Origin: Verrucomicrobiota bacterium
GTDB lineage: Bacteria > Verrucomicrobiota > Verrucomicrobiia > Palsa-1439
Assembly (NCBI GenBank): GCA_003164675.1
Contig: PLTX01000034.1
Span: forward strand, 9,680-73,679
DNA: 64,000 bases
Direction of reading: 5' to 3'
The position numbers and the translations under genes are program-made. Below, one piece after another: positions 7,325-54,017 of this stretch. Within the stretch, counting starts at the first letter, position 1, and each line of letters opens with the position of its first letter. The notes beneath the pieces are model-generated. The model was not told where the DNA came from and searched no databases. It saw only the letters and a list, made by a program, of their open reading frames with translations.

Positions 7325-8176
7325 ATGGGAAAGAACTCCAGCATTGAGTGGACAGATCACACATTCAACCCATGGTGGGGCTGCGCAAAAGTTTCGCCTG
7401 CCTGTACCAACTGTTACGCCGAAGCGTGGTCACGGCGGGTGGGGGCCGACATCTGGGGCGCGGGCGCAAGTCGACGTTTCTTTGGCACAAAGCATTGGCA
7501 GGAGCCGCTAAAATGGAATGAAGATGCCAAGAGAGAAGGGCGTCACAAGCGTGTGTTTTGCGCCTCCATGGCCGATGTGTTTGAAGAGCGCCCCGACTTG
7601 CATGCCACTCGTCGAAAACTGTGGCAATGGATTCATCTGACTCCTTGGCTGGATTGGCTTCTGCTGACGAAGAGACCCGAGAACGTCGGTCTCATGGTTC
7701 CTTGGAAGGATAAGTGGCCTACGAATGTTTGGCTTGGTACTTCCGTCGAAAATCAGGAATGGGTTAAGCAGCGCCTTCCTCTACTGCTGACCTATCCAGC
7801 CCAATGCCGGTTCCTTTCTTGCGAGCCATTGCTGGGTTCTCTCGACCTTCGTGCATGGATCGAAAGCCGTCCGGCGAAACTGTATCCAATCAACTGGGTG
7901 ATTGCAGGAGGGGAGAGCGGCCCAGGTGCCAGACCAATGCTCCCGGGGTGGGCGAGGAACGTACGTGACCAGTGCCAAGCTGCTGGCATCCCGTTTCATT
8001 TCAAGCAATGGGGGCATTGGGCCCCTGTTTCGGCCCCGAAACGTGAGGGTCCACTAGTACGTAAATTCTGGGACGAAGTGGCGGGCATGGAAATCTTCAT
8101 GGCCGCAAAGGGGAAGAAGATTGCTGGACGCCGGCTAGATGGAATGACGTGGGATCAACTCCCCGTAACGGCATGA
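7325..8176 (+). CDS. DUF5131 (phage Gp37/Gp68 family, PF07505) three-Cys-motif protein
   Basis: MGKNSSIEWTDHTFNPWWGCAKVSPACTNCYAEAWSRR matches the family N-terminus (IEWTDxTWNPxxGC...S.xC.xCYAE). Later conserved WLLLTKRPEN and FLSCEPLLG are present. The ORF opens at 6977 but overlaps the previous gene; the start at 7325 is preferred. Confidence 0.75.
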   Translation: MGKNSSIEWTDHTFNPWWGCAKVSPACTNCYAEAWSRRVGADIWGAGASRRFFGTKHWQEPLKWNEDAKREGRHKRVFCASMADVFEERPDLHATRRKLWQWIHLTPWLDWLLLTKRPENVGLMVPWKDKWPTNVWLGTSVENQEWVKQRLPLLLTYPAQCRFLSCEPLLGSLDLRAWIESRPAKLYPINWVIAGGESGPGARPMLPGWARNVRDQCQAAGIPFHFKQWGHWAPVSAPKREGPLVRKFWDEVAGMEIFMAAKGKKIAGRRLDGMTWDQLPVTA

Positions 8177-9063
8177 GTGCTGAAGACTTTCTCTTTGAGC
8201 TTCCACCAGCCGATCTAAAGATCGCTGAAAGAAAGTTCAAAGAGCGCAACCCGATCTGGACGGGGTGCAAGGCGAGACTCATCGAGCGCTATCTTTTTTA
8301 CTTTGTTCAAATCACTTACCATGGGACTTACATCGACGCTTTTGCGGGGCCGCAAGAATGCGACAAACATGAGATGTGGTCGGCGAAACTCGTGATGGAA
8401 AGCTCGCCGAGGTGGCTGAAAAACTTCTTCCTTTTTGAACTCAAAGATTCGCAAGTGAAGTTGCTTAGGCAGATGTGCAATAGCCAGCCGCCCCCTGATA
8501 AGACGAAGAAGGAACCGAATCGAAAAATCAAAATCTATCCGGGGGACTTTAATCAGAACATCCTCATGATGCTGCGTGAGAATCCGATTCGAGATAAAGA
8601 AGCCACGTTCTGTCTGCTAGATCAGAGAACCTTCGAGTGCGACTGGGCGTCCGTCAAAGCCATTGCTGACCACAAACGGGGCGGAAACAAAATCGAGCTG
8701 TTTTATTTCTTTCCAGAGGGTTGGATCAACCGAAGCATGAAAGCGAAGAAAATTGACAAGGATGAAGCTCTCAAAAAATGGTGGGGTGATTCGTCTTGGC
8801 CCGAACTGATGAAGAGGCAAGGGGCTGTCCGCGCTCAATATGTTTGCGACCGATTTAAATCGGAACTGAAATACAAACACGTTTATCCATTTCCGATTTA
8901 TGAGAAACCCGACAAAGGCGGCAGAATCATGTATTACATGATACATACGTCAGACCACGACGAAGCGCCATTATTAATGAATCGTGCGTATGGAAAAGCC
9001 CTTGACATCAAAGAGACACCCGAACAACTGGATTTGCTGAAGGTTTCTCTCGCCAAGAATTGA
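8173..9063 (+). CDS. Probable three-Cys-motif partner protein (TcmP-like), partner of DUF5131
   Basis: 296 aa, translationally coupled to the DUF5131 gene by an ATGA overlap. GC is markedly lower than in the neighbours. It contains YIDAFAGPQ, resembling the TcmP (TIGR04474) family that is regularly found next to PF07505 genes. The assignment rests on synteny and size and no HMM was run. Confidence 0.45.
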   Translation: MSAEDFLFELPPADLKIAERKFKERNPIWTGCKARLIERYLFYFVQITYHGTYIDAFAGPQECDKHEMWSAKLVMESSPRWLKNFFLFELKDSQVKLLRQMCNSQPPPDKTKKEPNRKIKIYPGDFNQNILMMLRENPIRDKEATFCLLDQRTFECDWASVKAIADHKRGGNKIELFYFFPEGWINRSMKAKKIDKDEALKKWWGDSSWPELMKRQGAVRAQYVCDRFKSELKYKHVYPFPIYEKPDKGGRIMYYMIHTSDHDEAPLLMNRAYGKALDIKETPEQLDLLKVSLAKN

Positions 9064-11332: not shown

Positions 11333-12244
11333 TTAAAATGGATCATGTGTGTCGGAGATTCCGCCACCCAGACCTCCGTTTCCCAAGAGATTTGCCCGAG
11401 GTGTGCGACCATACCCAACCATGTCTCCGGACTGGCCGCTCGATGTGAAGATCGTCACAGTCTGCGGCTTAATTCTCGTTTTGACCGCATGAATGATGAC
11501 GTTCTCCTGCAAGACATCGGCGTCATTGAACGCAGCCTTTCGTGACTCGAAGAGATGGATGGACCTAATAGCCATCTCGTCCAGAAAGAATCGGCGAAAT
11601 GGCGCGTGATACGGGCCGTTGCAAAAACTGCGCGGCGTGATCGCCACCAATTCTCCATCGTCCGCCACCAGCTTCACAACAAGCCCGAGAAAGGCAGTGT
11701 AGAGATTGACGACCGGCAATCCCACGCCCTCAAGGTGCTTTCGATCCGCCGAATTCGTGGCGATTTTACGATAGGGTGGATTCAGGATTGCCGCATCGTA
11801 ACGCTGGCGCTCGCTGCCAAAAAGGTCATCCCGCAACGCCAAGCTCGCATCGGAGATGAAGTCAGTGCGGTGAATCACATGCGAAAAGTAAACGCCGACT
11901 CTAGCAAGATGTTTAGCACAAAGCTCCAGCGTGTCGTGCAAGTGGTTGGCAAGCTCTGGATCAATCTCGAATGCGTCCACATGAAGCGACGTAGGCCGCT
12001 CGTCGCTCTGAAGAATCCGTTCGACGACAGCAGCGGTCAACGATCCGATTCCCGCGCCCGGGTCGAGCAAACGAATTGAGGCGCGATGCAGCGACAGTCT
12101 CTCTGCCATCAACTTCGCGACGAAATGCGGTGTTAGGATTTGCCCCAAGTTTGACCGTTGTTTGAGGTCAAGGCGGTTCGTGGCTGCTACCCGCGCGATG
12201 TCGACGGTTTCGCCCAAATCTGCTAGTGCGACGCTCGCATGCAT
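11333..12244 (-). CDS. Gamma-class N6-adenine DNA methyltransferase catalytic domain (Eco57I/TaqI-like); target-recognition domain absent, possibly truncated
   Basis: [16 protein letters not shown] (motif X), [10 protein letters not shown] (motif I/FxGxG) and ILNPPYRKI (motif IV NPPY). At 303 aa it ends shortly after the catalytic core with an atypical tail [16 protein letters not shown]. Confidence 0.7.
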
Positions 12245-22508: not shown

Positions 22509-24320
22509 ATGGCACTGAACGTTCCAACAGAACTCGAGCAGCACATCGACGAGGTCATCACGCACTACCCGCAGCAGCACAAACGGGCGGCGGTGCTGTG
22601 GCTGTTGCATCTTTTGCAGGAACATTTCGGCCACCTCGGCAAGGAGCAGGTCGAGTGGACCGCGACAAAACTCGGCTTGCAGCCGATCAACGTGTGGGAG
22701 TTGATCACGTTCTACCCGATGTTCACGGCCAAACCGCGGGGCAAGTTCCACATCAAGGTGTGCCGCACGCTTTCGTGCGAACTCTGCGGTTGTGGCGGCA
22801 TCCTCGAACGATTGCAAAGGAAACTCGGCGTCAAGCCGGATGAGAACACGAGCGATGGTCTGTTCACGATTTCCACGGTCGAATGTCTGGCGGCCTGCGG
22901 CACCGGCCCGGTGATGATGGTCAACGACGAGTTGTTTGAAAACCTCACGCCCGACAAGGCCGAGGCGATCATCAACCGGATCAAGACCACGGGCAAACTG
23001 GAGCCGCAACCATTGCCGCCCGTATTGCCCGCTCATCCGTTGGAGAAGCGCGTCCTGCTGGCCAACATGAGCAAGCCCGGGTACAAGGGCGCGATCGAGG
23101 ACTACATTCGCGAGGGCGGCTATAAGGCGTTGCCGAAAGCGCTCGGCATGAAACCCGAAGAGATCGTGGCCGAGGTCAAGAACAGCGGGGTTCGTGGGCG
23201 AGGCGGCGCGGGTTTCCCCTGCGGCATGAAGTGGAGTTTTCTCGCCAAGGGCGCCGGCCAGCCAATTTATCTGGTTTGTAACGCCGACGAGTCTGAGCCC
23301 GGCACGTTCAAGGACCGGCAGCTTCTCCATTACGATCCGCACCAGCTTATCGAAGGCATCCTCGTATCCTGCTACGCCGTCGGCGCGCATGCCGCATACA
23401 TTTACATCCGGGGCGAGATGCCCTATGGCGCGAAGATTCTCATCAGGGCCATCGAAGAGGCGCGCGCAAGGAATTTCCTGGGTAAGAACATTCTTCGCAA
23501 GGGGTTCGACTGCGAGATTTTCGTGCATCGAGGCGCGGGCGCGTACATCTGTGGTGAGGAAACCGGTCTCATTGAATCGCTGGAAGGCAAGCGCGCTTAT
23601 CCGCGCATCAAGCCGCCGTTCCCGGCGGTGGTCGGACTGTTCGGCTGTCCGACCGTCGTGAACAACGTCGAGACACTGTCGAATATCCCGCATATCATCA
23701 ACAATGGCGCGGCGTGGTTCAGGGGAATGGGGGTGCCCGGCTCCACCGGCACGCGCTTGGTTTGCGTCAGCGGCCCGGTGAAACGGCCCGGCTACTACGA
23801 GTTCGAGATGGGCAAGCTGACGATGCGCCAACTCATTTACGATTTGTGCGGCGGACTCCAGGAGGGTCGCCAACTGAAGGGCGTTGTGCCGGGCGGCAGC
23901 TCGATGCCCGTGCTGAAAGCCGACCAGATTGATGTGGCGCTGGATTTCGAATCACTCCGCAAGGCCGGCACGATGGCCGGCTCGGGTGGCGTGATCGTGC
24001 TGGATGATACGGTCGATATCGTGCAGAGCACGCTCAATGTCGCGCAGTTTTACGCGCACGAATCCTGCGGCCAGTGCACGCCGTGCCGCGAAGGCACGCT
24101 GTGGATGGAGAAAATGCTCCACCGCGTCAAACACGGCCACGGTCGCCCCGAAGACGTGGATTTGCTGTGGGACGTCGCCGACAACGTCGACGGCAAGACG
24201 ATCTGCCCGCTCGGCGAAGCGGTCGCCTGGCCCGTGAAAGCTTTCGTCACGAAATACCGCGGCGAGTTTGAGAAGGCATGCAAGAAGAATGGAAAGGAAG
24301 CCACAGATGAACACAGATAA
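22509..24320 (+). CDS. nuoEF: Fused NADH-quinone oxidoreductase subunits E and F (NuoE-NuoF single polypeptide)
   Basis: The N-terminal 160 aa is NuoE (2Fe-2S Cys: CRTLSCELCGCGG ... CLAACGTGP). A linker leads into NuoF (GRGGAGFPCGMKW, FMN/NADH sites, ESCGQCTPCREG 4Fe-4S). 603 aa with no internal stop. Confidence 0.85.
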   Translation: MALNVPTELEQHIDEVITHYPQQHKRAAVLWLLHLLQEHFGHLGKEQVEWTATKLGLQPINVWELITFYPMFTAKPRGKFHIKVCRTLSCELCGCGGILERLQRKLGVKPDENTSDGLFTISTVECLAACGTGPVMMVNDELFENLTPDKAEAIINRIKTTGKLEPQPLPPVLPAHPLEKRVLLANMSKPGYKGAIEDYIREGGYKALPKALGMKPEEIVAEVKNSGVRGRGGAGFPCGMKWSFLAKGAGQPIYLVCNADESEPGTFKDRQLLHYDPHQLIEGILVSCYAVGAHAAYIYIRGEMPYGAKILIRAIEEARARNFLGKNILRKGFDCEIFVHRGAGAYICGEETGLIESLEGKRAYPRIKPPFPAVVGLFGCPTVVNNVETLSNIPHIINNGAAWFRGMGVPGSTGTRLVCVSGPVKRPGYYEFEMGKLTMRQLIYDLCGGLQEGRQLKGVVPGGSSMPVLKADQIDVALDFESLRKAGTMAGSGGVIVLDDTVDIVQSTLNVAQFYAHESCGQCTPCREGTLWMEKMLHRVKHGHGRPEDVDLLWDVADNVDGKTICPLGEAVAWPVKAFVTKYRGEFEKACKKNGKEATDEHR

Positions 24321-24561
24321 ACGCAGATGTTGTAGCGGCACTTCTGCGAAGCGCCGATCTGTGTCCCATCGGTGTAAATCTGTGGCTGACAAGACCGCGA
24401 TTCGTTGGGTGACTGCTCCGCAATCATCGTTACCCGGCGCGCCCGCCGTCCAGGGTGTTGCCCTTGCGCCCGGCAAGGATGTGGAGTGGTTCTGGACGCA
24501 CACGCCCAGCGGCAGCTACGTCAGCGGGTACAACATCGTTCGGGCGCGGACTCCCAAAGCT

Positions 24562-24646
24562 GTCATTCTGAGCGAAGCGAAGAATCTCAGTCGTTCCGGT
24601 CGCGCAGGGAAACGACAGAGACCCTTCACTGCGCTCAGGGTGACAG
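24562..24646. repeat. MITE-like element family B (imperfect TIRs gtcattctgagcgaagcgaagaatctc / gagacccttcactgcgctcagggtgac; 'HPERSEGS'-type repeat) in the nuoEF-nuoG spacer
   Basis: About 85 bp. A near-identical copy is at 27985..28074. It translates as HPERSEGS in one frame, which accounts for the spurious ORFs 24430..24681(-) and 27807..28025(+). Confidence 0.65.
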
Positions 24647-24669
24647 ACTCTGAAATCGAGTGATCGAGA

Positions 24670-26376
24670 ATGGCAGAGCAAACAGTCAAACTAACGATCG
24701 ACGGCAAAGAGGTCGCAGCCCCGAAGGGAATGAACCTGATCGAGGCGGCGAAGCTCGCGGGCATCGAGGTGCCGCATTATTGCTATCACCCGAAGCTGGC
24801 GGTGGTCGGCAACTGCCGCATGTGCCTCGTCGACGTCGGCATGCCGAAGATGGGCCTCGACAAGAAGCCGGAGATCGGCCCGGACAGTAAGCCCGTGATC
24901 ATGTTTGGGCCGAAACTTACCATCGGCTGCAATACGTCCGTTGCCGAAGGCATGGTCGTGCACACGCGTTCGCCGAAAGTGATCAAGGCGCGGGAAGGCG
25001 TGATGGAGTTTCTGCTGATCAATCACCCGCTCGATTGTCCGATCTGCGACCAAGCGGGCGAATGCCGGCTGCAGGAGTTCAGCGTCGACTACGGCAAGGG
25101 CCAGAGCCGTTTTGTGGAAGAAAAGGTCCACAAACCGAAGAAGACGGAAATCGGCCCGAAGATCATGCTCGACGACGAGCGATGCATCCTTTGCTCACGG
25201 TGCGTCCGCTTCATGAGGGACGTGGCGGGTCAGGATTGTCTGGGTTTCGTGAATCGCGGCAGTTATTCCACACTCACCTGTTACCCCGGCATGGAACCGA
25301 ACACGAATTACGATCTCAATATCACCGACATTTGCCCCGTCGGCGCGCTCACAGCGAATGACTTCCGTTTCAAACAGCGCGTGTGGTTCCTCAAGGAGAC
25401 CAAGAGCGTGTGCCCAAATTGCGCGACGGGCTGCAATACCGTCTTGTGGTCGCGGGAAGGCGTCGTGCACCGACAGACGCCGCGCGACAATGATGCGGTC
25501 AATCAATGCTGGATGTGCGATTCGGGCCGGCTACACTACAAGTTTATCAATGATCCCCATCGCATTACCACGCCGACCGTAAAGTCGTCGGCGATGGGCG
25601 AGCGCCTTGCTTTGACGTGGCCCGAGGCGACGCGGCAAATCGCGGAGAAACTTATGCCGCTGAAGGGCAAGGGGTCGACAATCGCGGCCATCGGGACCGC
25701 GCGCGCGACGACCGAGGAGCTGTTCCTGTTCAACAAACTCATGCGTGAAATTCTGGGCGCCGAGTTGGTGGATTGCGTGCCCCACGTTGGCGAAGCCGAT
25801 AAATTCCTGCTCGATGCCGACCGCAATCCAAACACGAATGGCGCGAAGCTAACAGGCGTTGCGGGCGAACCGATTGGCAGCCGGATTCCGGCCATTGCCG
25901 AAGCAATCAAGTCGGGCAAGATCAAGACGCTCATCGTTCACGGCGAGAATGTTGTGAAATACGGGGTCACGGAGGAATTGCTCGCGAAGTTGGATTTGCT
26001 GGTGGTCATCGACACCCTGCCAAACAAGGTGACGGAACTGGCGCACTATGTCTTGCCCGGCGCGACCTTCGCGGAAAAGCGCGGCACGTTCATTAATGCC
26101 AGGAACCGCCTGCAACGCTTGAACGCGGCGATCCCATCGCCCGGCATCGCGCGGCCGGAATGGCAGACGTTCGCGGCGCTGCTGAACGAACTGGGCGGTG
26201 ATGGCGGCTACCTGACGATTGAAGATGTGTTCGCCGACATGGCGCGCTTGCTCGCGCCGTTGGCAGGACTGAATCTTTCCAAGATTGGCGATCTCGGTGT
26301 TGAACTGAAGCCCGCGACCGAAACAAAAGGTGAGGCGAAGACCGAGTCCACCGCCGCCGCGGGAGCGAAGACATGA
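24670..26376 (+). CDS. nuoG: NADH-quinone oxidoreductase subunit G (short 75-kDa form)
   Basis: 2Fe-2S N-terminus (YCYHPKLAVVGNCRMCLVDV), HPLDCPICDQAGECRLQ, CILCSRCVRF. Confidence 0.9.
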   Translation: MAEQTVKLTIDGKEVAAPKGMNLIEAAKLAGIEVPHYCYHPKLAVVGNCRMCLVDVGMPKMGLDKKPEIGPDSKPVIMFGPKLTIGCNTSVAEGMVVHTRSPKVIKAREGVMEFLLINHPLDCPICDQAGECRLQEFSVDYGKGQSRFVEEKVHKPKKTEIGPKIMLDDERCILCSRCVRFMRDVAGQDCLGFVNRGSYSTLTCYPGMEPNTNYDLNITDICPVGALTANDFRFKQRVWFLKETKSVCPNCATGCNTVLWSREGVVHRQTPRDNDAVNQCWMCDSGRLHYKFINDPHRITTPTVKSSAMGERLALTWPEATRQIAEKLMPLKGKGSTIAAIGTARATTEELFLFNKLMREILGAELVDCVPHVGEADKFLLDADRNPNTNGAKLTGVAGEPIGSRIPAIAEAIKSGKIKTLIVHGENVVKYGVTEELLAKLDLLVVIDTLPNKVTELAHYVLPGATFAEKRGTFINARNRLQRLNAAIPSPGIARPEWQTFAALLNELGGDGGYLTIEDVFADMARLLAPLAGLNLSKIGDLGVELKPATETKGEAKTESTAAAGAKT

Positions 26377-27410
26377 TTCCATTGCTGCTCATTCATCTCA
26401 TCAAGATTGCCTGTGTCATCGGTGTGATGCTTGGCATCGTTGCCTACACCGTGCTGGCGGAACGCAAGATTTGCGCGTGGATGCAGGATCGCATCGGTCC
26501 CAATCGGGTCGGGCCATTCGGCCTTTTGCAGCCCGTAGCCGATGGTTTGAAGTTCATTTTCAAAGAGGACGTGCTTCCGCATCACGTCAACAAGGTGTAT
26601 TTCACATTGGCACCCATGATTGCCATGATCCCCGCGCTGATCACGATCGCGGTGGTGCCGTGGGGTAGCCAGTTGGTGATTCCCAGCGTGTCGCACGATC
26701 CGATCCCGGGCGTGATTGCCAACCTGAATGTCGGCATCCTGTTCGTGTTCGCCATTTCCTCACTCGGCGTGTACGGCATCGTGCTGGCGGGATGGTCGAG
26801 CAACTCGAAGTATCCGTTCCTCGGCGGCATCCGATCGAGCGCGCAGATGATTTCCTACGAAGTTTGCCTCGGATTGAGCGTGGTACCGGTGTTCATGCAG
26901 GTCGGCTCGCTCAATCTCATGAAGGTGGTTGAATACCAGGCGCAGCACACATGGCTGGGGTTCACCCAGCCGCTGTCGTGTTTCATTTTCCTTGTGAGCG
27001 CGTTTGCCGAGACCAACCGCCTGCCGTTCGATTTGCCGGAGGCGGAACAGGAACTGGTCGGCGGATACCACACCGAGTACAGCTCCATGAAGTTCGCGAT
27101 GTTCTTTCTCGGTGAGTACGCCGCGATGTTCATGGCCTCGGCGCTGATGGCGACGCTGTTTTTCGGCGGTTGGTCGCTGCCGTTCGCGCCGTTCAACGCG
27201 CCCGCGCAAACCTTGACGGTGGGTTTGATTCACATCGGCATCTTCCTGGCGAAGGTGTGCGGTTTCCTGTTCTTCTTCATTTGGGTGCGGTGGACGATCC
27301 CGCGATTCCGTTATGACCAACTGATGACGTTGGGATGGAAGATATTCATCCCGCTGACGCTGTTGAATATTCTCATTTCCGGAGTCGTGCTGGCGGTGAT
27401 CACGAAATGA
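26373..27410 (+). CDS. nuoH: NADH-quinone oxidoreductase subunit H
   Basis: [32 protein letters not shown], polytopic membrane protein. Confidence 0.9.
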
Positions 27411-27973
27411 CCATGCAAGTCGAACGTCCAAAACTGACGATTTGGGAGCGGACGTATCTCCCGCAGATTCTGCACGGGCTGTGGTTGACGTTGAAACACA
27501 TCCCGCAGCGAAAGTTTACTCGTCAATATCCGGAGGAGAAACCGCCGCTCCATGGCGCGTATCGCGGCGCGCCGACGTTGGTCAAGGACCCGGAGGGGCG
27601 GGTCAAATGCGTTTCGTGCCAGTTGTGCGAATTCGTCTGTCCGCCGAAAGCGATCCGCATCACCCCGCGCGCGCGACCGGAGGATGTTCCGGACGCCAAT
27701 GTCGAAAAAGAACCCGAGGATTTCGTCATCGATATGTTGCGCTGCATTTATTGCGGGTACTGTGAGGAAGTGTGTCCCGAGGAAGCAATTTTCCTGAAGC
27801 AGGATTTTGCCATCGCGGGCTACACGCGCGAAGAATTGCGGTTTCACAAGGAGAAGTTGCTGGAATTGGGAGGCGTGCAACCGGACTCCATTTGGAAATG
27901 GAAATTCAAGGGGGCGCCGCCGCTGGATGCGCCGGGTGCGCCGAAGCGTGAGGGGGCTGGTCGGAAAGGATGA
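27407..27973 (+). CDS. nuoI: NADH-quinone oxidoreductase subunit I
   Basis: Two 4Fe-4S motifs CVSCQLCEFVCP and CIYCGYCEEVCP. ATGA overlap with nuoH. Confidence 0.9.
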   Translation: MTMQVERPKLTIWERTYLPQILHGLWLTLKHIPQRKFTRQYPEEKPPLHGAYRGAPTLVKDPEGRVKCVSCQLCEFVCPPKAIRITPRARPEDVPDANVEKEPEDFVIDMLRCIYCGYCEEVCPEEAIFLKQDFAIAGYTREELRFHKEKLLELGGVQPDSIWKWKFKGAPPLDAPGAPKREGAGRKG

Positions 27974-27984
27974 ATTCCCGATTT

Positions 27985-28074
27985 GTCATTCTGAGCGGAG
28001 CGAAGAATCTCAGTCGTTGAACTGATGGACAAAACGGCGAACAACAGAGACCCTTCGCTGCGCTCAGGGTGACA
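27985..28074. repeat. MITE-like element family B, second copy, filling the nuoI-nuoJ spacer
   Basis: gtcattctgagcggagcgaagaatctcagtcgtt...agagacccttcgctgcgctcagggtgaca. Confidence 0.65.
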
Positions 28075-28084
28075 ACGTAAAGAG

Positions 28085-28585
28085 ATGAACATGTACGACA
28101 TACTGTTCTGGTTTTTCAGCATCGCGATGCTGGTGTGCGGGTTGTTGGTGATTGCCAACCGCAATCCCGTCGCCAGCGCGCTGTTTCTCGTGCTGCTGTT
28201 TGTGTTCCTAGCCGGTCTGTTTGTCCTGCTCGAAGCGTTCTTCATCGCGGCGATCCAGGTGCTGGTGTATGCGGGCGCGATCATGGTGTTGTTCCTGTTC
28301 GTCATCATGTTGCTGGATATCAAGGCCAGCGAGCGCCGAAAGTTCCGGGCACTCGGTGTCGTTGGCGGAATCGCGGTGGCCGTGGCGTTCGTGTGGGAAT
28401 TGGTGATCATCCTCACCCGACCGCTGAAACCCCTGGCCACCGGCGGCGACGAACTGAGCGGCGGTCTGGAGCAGGTCGTCAAACCGCTGTTTGCCAATTA
28501 TATGTTGCCATTCGAGGTGACGGCGCTGCTGCTGCTGGTGGCGATGATCGGCGTGGTCTTGCTTTCCAAGAGGGAACTCAAGTGA
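28085..28585 (+). CDS. nuoJ: NADH-quinone oxidoreductase subunit J
   Basis: 166 aa polytopic membrane protein in the nuo gene order. Confidence 0.8.
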   Translation: MNMYDILFWFFSIAMLVCGLLVIANRNPVASALFLVLLFVFLAGLFVLLEAFFIAAIQVLVYAGAIMVLFLFVIMLLDIKASERRKFRALGVVGGIAVAVAFVWELVIILTRPLKPLATGGDELSGGLEQVVKPLFANYMLPFEVTALLLLVAMIGVVLLSKRELK

Positions 28586-53933: not shown

Positions 53934-54017
53934 CCCTCACGCTGACCCTCTCCCTTACACAGCAAGGGAGAGGGGAGTCTCCTCTCCCCTCCGGGGGTAG
54001 AGGATTAAGGTGAGGGG
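53934..54017. repeat. REP-like element family A, compound copy (outer ccctcac/gtgaggg arms enclosing two ccctctccc hairpins)
   Basis: ccctcac-gctga-ccctctccc-ttacacagcaa-gggagaggg-gagt-ctcctctcccc-tcc-gggggtagagga-ttaag-gtgaggg. Confidence 0.6.

Follow-up and report, generated by a model that had tools for sequence, protein, structure and literature searches.

Hairpin-armed doublets between nuo genes of a Verrucomicrobiota bacterium resemble the target repeats of Ssn single-stranded DNA nucleases

Background

The Ssn proteins are single-domain GIY-YIG nucleases that bind hairpin repeats only as single-stranded DNA (ssDNA) and cut a few nucleotides upstream of them (PMC11893778). Their target repeats are named NTS in Neisseria and “Ssn-related motifs” (SRMs) elsewhere (Chenal et al. 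2025, Nat Commun 16:2388, PMC11893778). Cutting depends on the GTC that lies 5' of the palindrome and binding on the C immediately 3' of it, and mutations of residues Y6, Y17 and E64 in SsnA abolish cleavage (PMC11893778). SRMs occur near 71% of Ssn homologues, the search sequence for them (HGTCWYN(0-2)YYVSBRHN(0-5)WNVSBRGN(0-2)RNCYNB) was built by hand from 29 genomes, and the arrangement NTS-ssnA-NTS was likened by Chenal et al. to an insertion sequence (PMC11893778). Here we examine two elements of 85 and 91 bp, made of arms that resemble these repeats, which lie between genes of the complex I (nuo) operon in a 64,000-nucleotide stretch of DNA from an uncultured Verrucomicrobiia bacterium (GenBank assembly GCA_003164675.1, contig PLTX01000034.1, positions 9,680 to 73,679, forward strand). 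We refer to the whole of this stretch as the window and number positions from its first letter.

Hairpins with a related tag have also been described as repetitive extragenic palindromes (REPs) of the CGTC type, which include dRS3 of Neisseria and RPE-4 and RPE-6 of Rickettsia (Di Nocera, De Gregorio, Rocco 2013, BMC Genomics 14:522, PMC3733652). The tag of these repeats is often TGTC, their stems of 8-9 bp start with A-T, and they are found mostly as inverted dimers; the dimers are often heterodimers with different stems, have spacers of 20-100 bp, and carry a short unpaired tail (PMC3733652).

We favor the reading, at a probability of about 0.7, that both copies in the window are gene-less, head-outward inverted doublets of Ssn-related motifs, inserted in nuo spacers without target duplication. 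Each arm is most likely a REP-type DNA hairpin with a CGTC/TGTC tag and, by analogy, the recognition site of a single-domain GIY-YIG ssDNA nuclease of the Ssn kind. We file the elements as Ssn-related-motif doublets because the tag, the stem ends, and the trailing C are shared and because the proteins linked to such arms resemble SsnA. The pairing of Ssn nucleases with hairpin repeats is already known; what is new is an arm sequence variant outside the published pattern.

This variant, with its tandem G.A and a GNA tip or variable apical hairpin, is very widespread and is missed by the SRM pattern; its hosts include Verrucomicrobiota, Acidobacteriota, Chloroflexota, Saccharibacteria, Omnitrophota, Nitrospirales, Bacteroidales, Clostridia, and others. 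Our analysis further adds natural cases in which the same arm pair surrounds different nuclease genes at one chromosomal site, and an essential operon whose once-tight junctions were repeatedly opened by such insertions. It also removes the reading of the elements as a nuo-specific regulatory RNA and places them with the Ssn nucleases and their hairpin repeats.

Two convergent doublets in the nuo operon

An earlier annotation of the window, made from the letters alone and hereafter called the sequence-only reading, placed two copies of a repeated element at 24562-24646 and 27985-28074, and two copies are indeed found there. Copy 1 occupies 24561-24645 (85 bp) and ends 24 nt 5' of the nuoG ATG; its GTCA...TGAC extent is 24562-24644, to which the conserved outer T/A adds one nucleotide at each end. 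Copy 2 occupies 27984-28074 (91 bp; 27985-28073 before the outer T/A is counted) and ends 10 nt 5' of the nuoJ ATG. Both are convergent doublets of hairpin arms. In copy 1, a heterodimer, the left arm (24561-24595, plus strand) consists of the T-GTC tag, the stem ATTCT/AGAAT, a tandem G.A, the tip GC-GAA-GC, the C, and an inner extension, TCAGTCGTT; beyond a central spacer of 15 nt (24596-24610), the right arm (24611-24645, minus strand) has the T-GTC tag, the stem ACCCT/AGGGT, the tip GC-GCA-GT, and the inner extension TCTGTCGTT. Copy 2 repeats this plan, with a left arm (27984-28018, plus strand) of stem ATTCT/AGAAT and tip GC-GGA-GC, a central spacer of 21 nt (28019-28039), and a right arm (28040-28074, minus strand) of stem ACCCT/AGGGT and tip GC-GCA-GC.

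The 35-nt arms of the two copies agree at 34/35 and 33/35 positions (94-97%), while the centers are unrelated. For this reason the overall identity is 81% (74 of 91 aligned columns), slightly lower than the figure of more than 85% given earlier. Ends resembling terminal inverted repeats had been proposed and are present in each copy as inverted arms of 36 nt that are 81% complementary. The peptide HPERSEGS, noted as recurring in one frame, is likewise there, encoded by the minus strand of the right arm in both copies (CHPERSEGS in copy 1), and simply results from the DNA being repeated. The 15-nt arm core has four exact occurrences in the window, each of them an arm of copy 1 or copy 2, and no further copies were found in the 64 kb, also by more sensitive searches. 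Around the two window copies there is no target-site duplication.

Arm structure and co-variation

An arm consists of a (T)GTC tag, a 5-bp stem of the form A-NN-CT/AG-NN-T, a tandem G.A (CTGAG/CGAAG), a GC-GNA-GC tip, and then a C, and all four window arms follow the order T-GTC-A..CT...AG..T-C. Left and right arms differ exactly where self-complementarity survives the difference (ATTCT...AGAAT versus ACCCT...AGGGT). As the arms of one copy differ while staying self-complementary, each arm is a unit in its own right.

A scan of one genome per species, with the NN positions left free in the pattern, gave at least 120 stretches. Among the matches listed, arms occur in genomes of more than ten phyla, with stretches from Chloroflexota, Acidobacteriota, Saccharibacteria, Nitrospirales, Omnitrophota, Bacteroidales, Clostridia, Planctomycetes, Verrucomicrobia, Proteobacteria, and others; in the same set the NN positions form Watson-Crick pairs in 145 of 154 exact arms, in seven combinations, compared with 54 on average and at most 73 in shuffles, and arm pairs are convergent (“+-”) 73 times and “-+” 16 times. 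At loci picked by protein homology only, Watson-Crick pairing holds in 160 of 191 unique arms (shuffle mean 53). Unique doublets (n = 156) have a median length of 87 bp; a T precedes GTC in 85% of them and an A follows GAC in 83%, and 140 have no flanking direct repeat, the remainder having one of 1-3 nt. Many arms carry a longer G+C-rich apical hairpin in place of the tip.

Some doublets also bear lineage-specific outer extensions that lengthen the palindrome. One group reads acaggctgcggaaaaa...tttttccgcagcctgt and the other agccccaccct...agggtggggct; extended doublets were seen at loci L008, L012, L040, and L056 (Acidobacteriota, Saccharimonadales) and at L001, L010, and L022 (Chloroflexota).

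Linkage of the arms to Ssn-family genes

When the 2283 open reading frames (ORFs) within 1.5 kb of arms among the matches listed were clustered, one small conserved family emerged, a GIY-YIG protein of about 100 aa; the largest cluster was made up of histidine kinases. The GIY-YIG gene is present at three of 120 genome loci among the matches listed and is bracketed by arms every time. L070 shows this cleanly, with two arms that enclose ssn in a unit of about 400 bp. The small arm-linked proteins match Pfam GIY-YIG, share 39-46% full-length identity with the 94-aa SsnA orthologue of N. gonorrhoeae, and keep Y6, Y17, and E64 invariant. NCBIfam has no name for any of these GIY-YIG proteins, and their closest PDB relatives are only the UPF0213 proteins 1ZG2 and 1YWL.

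We also ran the comparison in the opposite direction, starting from 80 metagenomic loci that encode relatives of the arm-linked GIY-YIG proteins, ranked by tblastn. An arm lies within 250 bp of the gene at 69 of the 80 (upstream at 59, downstream at 62, and on both sides at 52), and arm density is 5.33/kb near the gene versus 0.18/kb further off, a 30-fold difference. This reciprocal test decisively supports a tight linkage of the arms to Ssn-family genes.

Several individual loci add to this picture. The ssnA orthologue at L211 (NZ_CP119140.1, 1880778-1884050) lacks an annotation and is surrounded by nine NTS, which form convergent doublets of 105-183 bp; the records NZ_CP119140.1 and NZ_CP119142.1, listed as “plasmid” in PLSDB, are 2.17-Mb N. 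gonorrhoeae chromosomes. The Planktothrix agardhii plasmid NZ_LR882964.1 (L212, 17350-20622) encodes an Ssn homologue that shares 66% identity with the L070 protein; its gene has an MmeI-type restriction-modification gene on one side and drmA of DISARM on the other, and is flanked by arms of the CTGAG/CGAAG type in AT-rich variants. The metagenomic contig L185 has a canonical Neisseria-type NTS (CGTCATTCCCGCGCAGGCGGGAATCCAC) at 135-162, about 240 nt 5' of an ssn gene that is flanked by CTGAG/CGAAG-type doublets (240-1000), so the two arm classes can coexist.

The exact arm pattern is also present on 103 stretches of predicted viral contigs (IMG/VR, L213-L315), one of which, L298, carries an Ssn homologue. 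Viral contigs are a possible route for arms between phyla.

Comparison with described repeat families

The window arms are like NTS and SRMs in having an oriented (C/T)GTC tag, a stem that starts ATTC...GAAT, and a C right after the palindrome; arms of this type also resemble them in forming convergent pairs and in flanking, on one or both sides, a single-domain GIY-YIG gene of about 95-115 aa. As in the published definition, the arm is an inverted repeat of 20-50 nt that forms a hairpin, here judged by co-variation, with a GTC flank and a trailing C, and it is physically associated with genes that by sequence belong to the Ssn family (single-domain GIY-YIG, cd10448 in that definition). The two types differ in the inner stem, which is G+C-rich in NTS and SRMs (CCCGCG/CGCGGG), whereas arms of the window type have CTGAG/CGAAG (tandem G.A), topped by a GNA tip or by an apical hairpin that varies. 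The window variant differs further in its host, an uncultured member of the Verrucomicrobiia, in coming from a window without ssn, and in being known from sequence alone.

With the CGTC-tagged REPs the window arms share an unpaired tag (here TGTC), a stem of similar length (here nine positions, ATTCTGAGC/GCGAAGAAT, two G.A pairs included), a short loop, a 3-nt tail, and the organization in inverted dimers, which predominates among arms of this type. The REPs of the published survey differ in having loops of 4-5 nt, fully paired stems, and a CCA tail, in contrast to the two G.A mismatches, 3-nt tip, and CTC tail of the window arms. That survey listed five phyla and reported no CGTC repeats in Verrucomicrobia, Acidobacteria, Chloroflexi, or bacteria of the Candidate Phyla Radiation (PMC3733652). 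Neither the exact arm sequences nor GCGAAGC led to anything relevant in full-text literature searches.

A different origin would be that the doublets are REPINs moved by RAYT, an IS200/IS605-like tyrosine transposase, or that they are classical miniature inverted-repeat transposable elements (MITEs) derived from a DDE transposon; we consider this very improbable. The layout does point that way, since an inverted hairpin doublet of about 90 bp without target duplication is how REPINs are built, and in both systems the repeats far outnumber the associated gene, which is itself flanked by repeats (Bertels and Rainey 2011, PMC3116915). REPINs have a GTAG tag and an HUH tyrosine transposase, whereas the window type has TGTC (or CGTC) and a GIY-YIG nuclease. 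The one small conserved family near arms in the clustering of 2283 ORFs, in which the smaller clusters were not all annotated, is GIY-YIG, and no transposase-like cluster was seen there; the CGTC repeats of Di Nocera et al. were likewise without a linked transposase (PMC3733652).

The likeness to MITEs, which was the label chosen by the sequence-only reading, is one of structure and behavior. The window doublets are short and gene-less, have terminal inverted repeats that look like MITE ends, are variably present, and have longer gene-carrying relatives with the same ends. They depart from classical MITEs in that they lack the flanking target-site duplication (as do the 140 of 156 doublets above), their ends are self-folding hairpins of the REP type, and the linked protein is a GIY-YIG enzyme and not a DDE transposase; the lack of a target-site duplication argues against a DDE origin. 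“MITE-like” was thus right in spirit, and the elements are REPIN-like Ssn-motif doublets. Neisseria also has intergenic mosaic or minimal mobile elements, short units bounded by inverted dRS3 or NTS repeats, with variable cassettes between conserved genes and large clusters near surface-protein genes. The window, by comparison, has single doublets inside an essential respiratory operon.

Occupancy of the nuo spacers in relatives

The sequence-only reading held that a sequence conserved at the same two sites in all relatives, and never found elsewhere, would speak against inserted elements. In the nuo operons of relatives at 79-97% NuoH identity (best NuoH match 97%) the elements keep to neither site: one or both copies are missing, or the junctions are tight, in relatives at 87-97% NuoH identity, and arms are found in other nuo spacers. 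A near-identical nuoF-G doublet, with a similar central spacer, also occurs at L123-L126, next to different neighboring genes, and is missing from L121, L207, L208, and L209. In L207 and L209 the nuoF stop and the nuoG start are 1-2 bp apart, so the whole 349-bp spacer of the window is inserted DNA. Copy 2, the nuoI-J doublet, has no counterpart in the sampled relatives, most of which have an unrelated palindrome at that junction; L209 has neither palindrome nor doublet. On the favored reading, such doublet insertions break once-tight nuo gene junctions.

Other nuo spacers are occupied by arms that enclose genes. L210 has arms in its nuoB-C, nuoG-H, and nuoL-M spacers, and a nuoL-M arm pair encloses an HNH gene in L121, a PLD-like gene in L123, and a PDC-S61-like gene in L209. 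In L121 and L123 the enclosed gene is followed by an ssn gene with an arm of its own, so that two close relatives (NuoH 97% and 95%, respectively) have ssn in the nuo operon, flanked by arms whose core is identical to that of the window's left arm; the inner extension CTC(A/T)GTCGTT...AACGAC(A/T)GAG is common to that arm, L121, and L123. The window and L208 have overlapping nuoL and nuoM, with an empty junction. The doublets are most likely non-autonomous relatives of such longer, same-ended units carrying ssn or other small nuclease genes. In total, eight loci hold 21 arms in nuo spacers, a count that is descriptive only, as the loci are phylogenetically related, and the roughly 89 kb of DNA flanking nuo at these loci contains no convincing arm. 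Two arm matches outside nuo obtained with a loose pattern (window 53917 and L210 1948) proved spurious on inspection.

These occupancy data also bear on the suggestion that the elements act in the nuo mRNA as an attenuator, processing site, terminator, or promoter. In its strongest form, the doublets would be a selected cis-acting nuo RNA (stabilizer, processing site, or attenuator) that tunes expression of nuoA-F, nuoG-I, and nuoJ-N, which we regard as unlikely. Since each copy is flanked by genes of one operon that run in the same direction, both are probably transcribed within the nuo mRNA, where they would form very stable hairpins (-49.1 and -47.2 kcal/mol on the sense strand; z -6.4 and -7.5). 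REPs of E. coli can stabilize upstream mRNA. Di Nocera et al. argued that many REPs act as RNA (PMC3733652).

The structure prediction itself lends no support to an RNA role, as the antisense strand folds equally well: compared with shuffles, the whole elements reach z -6.4 to -7.5 as RNA on either strand, and -4.8 and -5.9 as DNA. The positions are unconserved in relatives at 87-97% NuoH identity, the identical motif sits in unrelated contexts across phyla, and the co-variation backs the small arm hairpins, of the type that Ssn recognizes in DNA, and not a nuo-specific fold. Neither element has a promoter-like or terminator-like site, such as a G+C hairpin followed by a T-run, and neither matches an Rfam family at the gathering score; searched to E 10, the elements gave only a spurious mir-61 (31 bits, cutoff 77) and a 9.6-bit fragment of IRES_n-myc in copy 2. 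A hammerhead core, suggested by CUGA...GAA, was rejected, as the arm has CUGAGCG and not CUGANGA and has no Rfam match. The elements are not a nuo-specific regulator. A stabilizing or uncoupling side effect on nuo expression is possible, while the strong hairpin in the nuo transcript is itself most likely incidental, tolerated and not selected.

Proposed mechanism and competing explanations

By analogy with SsnA of Neisseria, each arm would fold in single-stranded DNA, on the strand with the sequence TGTC-ATTCT...AGAAT-C. The hairpin would then be bound by an Ssn whose gene lies elsewhere in the genome, and the enzyme would nick a few nucleotides 5' of the tag, which for a doublet would place a nick just outside each end, one per strand. 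Nicking, combined with repair or recombination, could spread, exchange, or delete the elements and the DNA between arms.

Several points weigh against the reading of the window copies as inserted Ssn-related-motif doublets. First, the published degenerate SRM pattern has no match in the window, where the arms would need at least 2-3 substitutions to fit it, and at the 80 ssn loci it has three matches versus 244 variant arms; the same pattern finds nine of nine NTS at the N. gonorrhoeae locus. The pattern is a search tool built by hand from 29 genomes, so we take the mismatch to mark a sequence variant and not an exclusion. Second, single arms have predicted energies no better than shuffles (z about 0), and the case for the hairpin is thus made by co-variation alone. 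Third, the tblastn ranking of the 80 loci may favor genes that run 3' into an arm, a bias that leaves the upstream counts unaffected. Fourth, no ssn gene lies within the 64-kb window, and a partner enzyme in the source genome is therefore assumed. Fifth, there is no clean pair of filled and empty junctions, as the nuoI-J spacers of relatives are replaced and not simply empty; L209, the sole palindrome-free relative at this junction, is at 87% too diverged to define that of copy 2. Finally, the role demonstrated experimentally for Ssn is the restriction of incoming ssDNA in Neisseria, not the movement of DNA.

A rival account is a host-serving explanation, in which the arms, as in Neisseria, are Ssn cut marks on incoming ssDNA that shape recombination around the nuo genes, and in which occupancy changes through homologous exchange of whole spacers, with no insertion activity. 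ssDNA restriction is the only role shown by experiment for the Ssn family (PMC11893778), the nuo spacers differ between relatives as entire cassettes, and the convergent-doublet layout is also that of the Neisseria NTS repeats. Against this, de novo insertions must have happened at some stage to put the same arm type in at least five nuo spacers and at unrelated loci of many phyla, and the arms far outnumber ssn (3 of 120 genome loci among the matches listed, 1 of 103 viral stretches). We hold the host-serving explanation to be a serious but distinctly less probable account than insertion of Ssn-motif doublets.

An extension of the insertion reading would go further. The doublets may be miniature members of a genuine transposon family that uses Ssn as its enzyme and lodges small nuclease or defense genes in the spacers of essential operons such as nuo as safe harbors, with the CTGAG/CGAAG arms as a separate specificity group of Ssn that reaches over more than ten phyla and onto viral contigs; we offer this only tentatively. 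If it is true, Ssn-driven DNA transposition would be a mechanism so far undemonstrated, and arm ends could carry HNH, PLD-like, PDC-S61-like, and ssn genes into conserved essential operons. The window arms and the ssn genes in the nuoL-M spacer of relatives provide substrates and a matched enzyme for the question of restriction versus movement.

Other features of the nuo spacers

The genes around the two copies are all on the plus strand and were identified by Pfam: a fused nuoE-nuoF (22509-24320; 603 aa; 2Fe-2S_thioredx, Complex1_51K, and NADH_4Fe-4S), nuoG (24670-26376), nuoI (27335-27973), and nuoJ (28085-28585). The window and all sampled relatives have nuoE and nuoF as one gene of about 600 aa. 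The nuoI-nuoJ spacer (27974-28084, 111 bp) holds copy 2. The nuoEF-nuoG spacer (24321-24669), rightly singled out before as unusually long at about 350 bp, measures 349 bp and is composed of an unrelated palindrome, a 175-bp segment, and copy 1.

This second palindrome, at 24299-24387 (within 24296-24392), has arms of 20 nt and accounts for the inverted acacagat/atctgtgt motifs reported earlier in the spacer, which are real and separate from copy 1. It reads GAAGCCACAGATGnACACAGrTAAAC...ATCTGTGGC and abuts the nuoEF stop codon in the window; in L121, L123, L124, L207 (about 11576-11645), and L210 (about 11640-11705), it abuts the nuoI stop instead. The relatives with this placement have NuoH identities of 79-97%. 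The palindrome appears to be a further small element of the REP type, one that switches spacers. Between this CCACAGAT palindrome and copy 1, the 175-bp segment (24388-24562) resembles none of the fetched loci, either as DNA or in translation, and the ORF at 24268-24663 has no Pfam match.

In this Verrucomicrobiia clade the complex I operon is a hotspot where small genes have been inserted between nuo genes. The inserts encode an ORF6N protein (PADLOC candidate PDC-S05, E 2e-53), an HNH protein with homing-endonuclease repeats, a PLD/NgoFVII-like nuclease, a PDC-S61-like protein, PDDEXK_3, Ssn, and several ORFs without a family. They are located at 7719-8273 and 14464-15692 in L121, 7163-8297 and 14518-15897 in L123, 7749-8282 and 14346-14846 in L125, 14359-14793 in L207, 5585-5878 and 7707-8267 in L208, 14628-15416 in L209, and 7451-8116 in L210. 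Elsewhere in the window, an unrelated short palindrome lies at 53940-53995 (ccctctccc...gggagagggg / ctcctctcccctcc).

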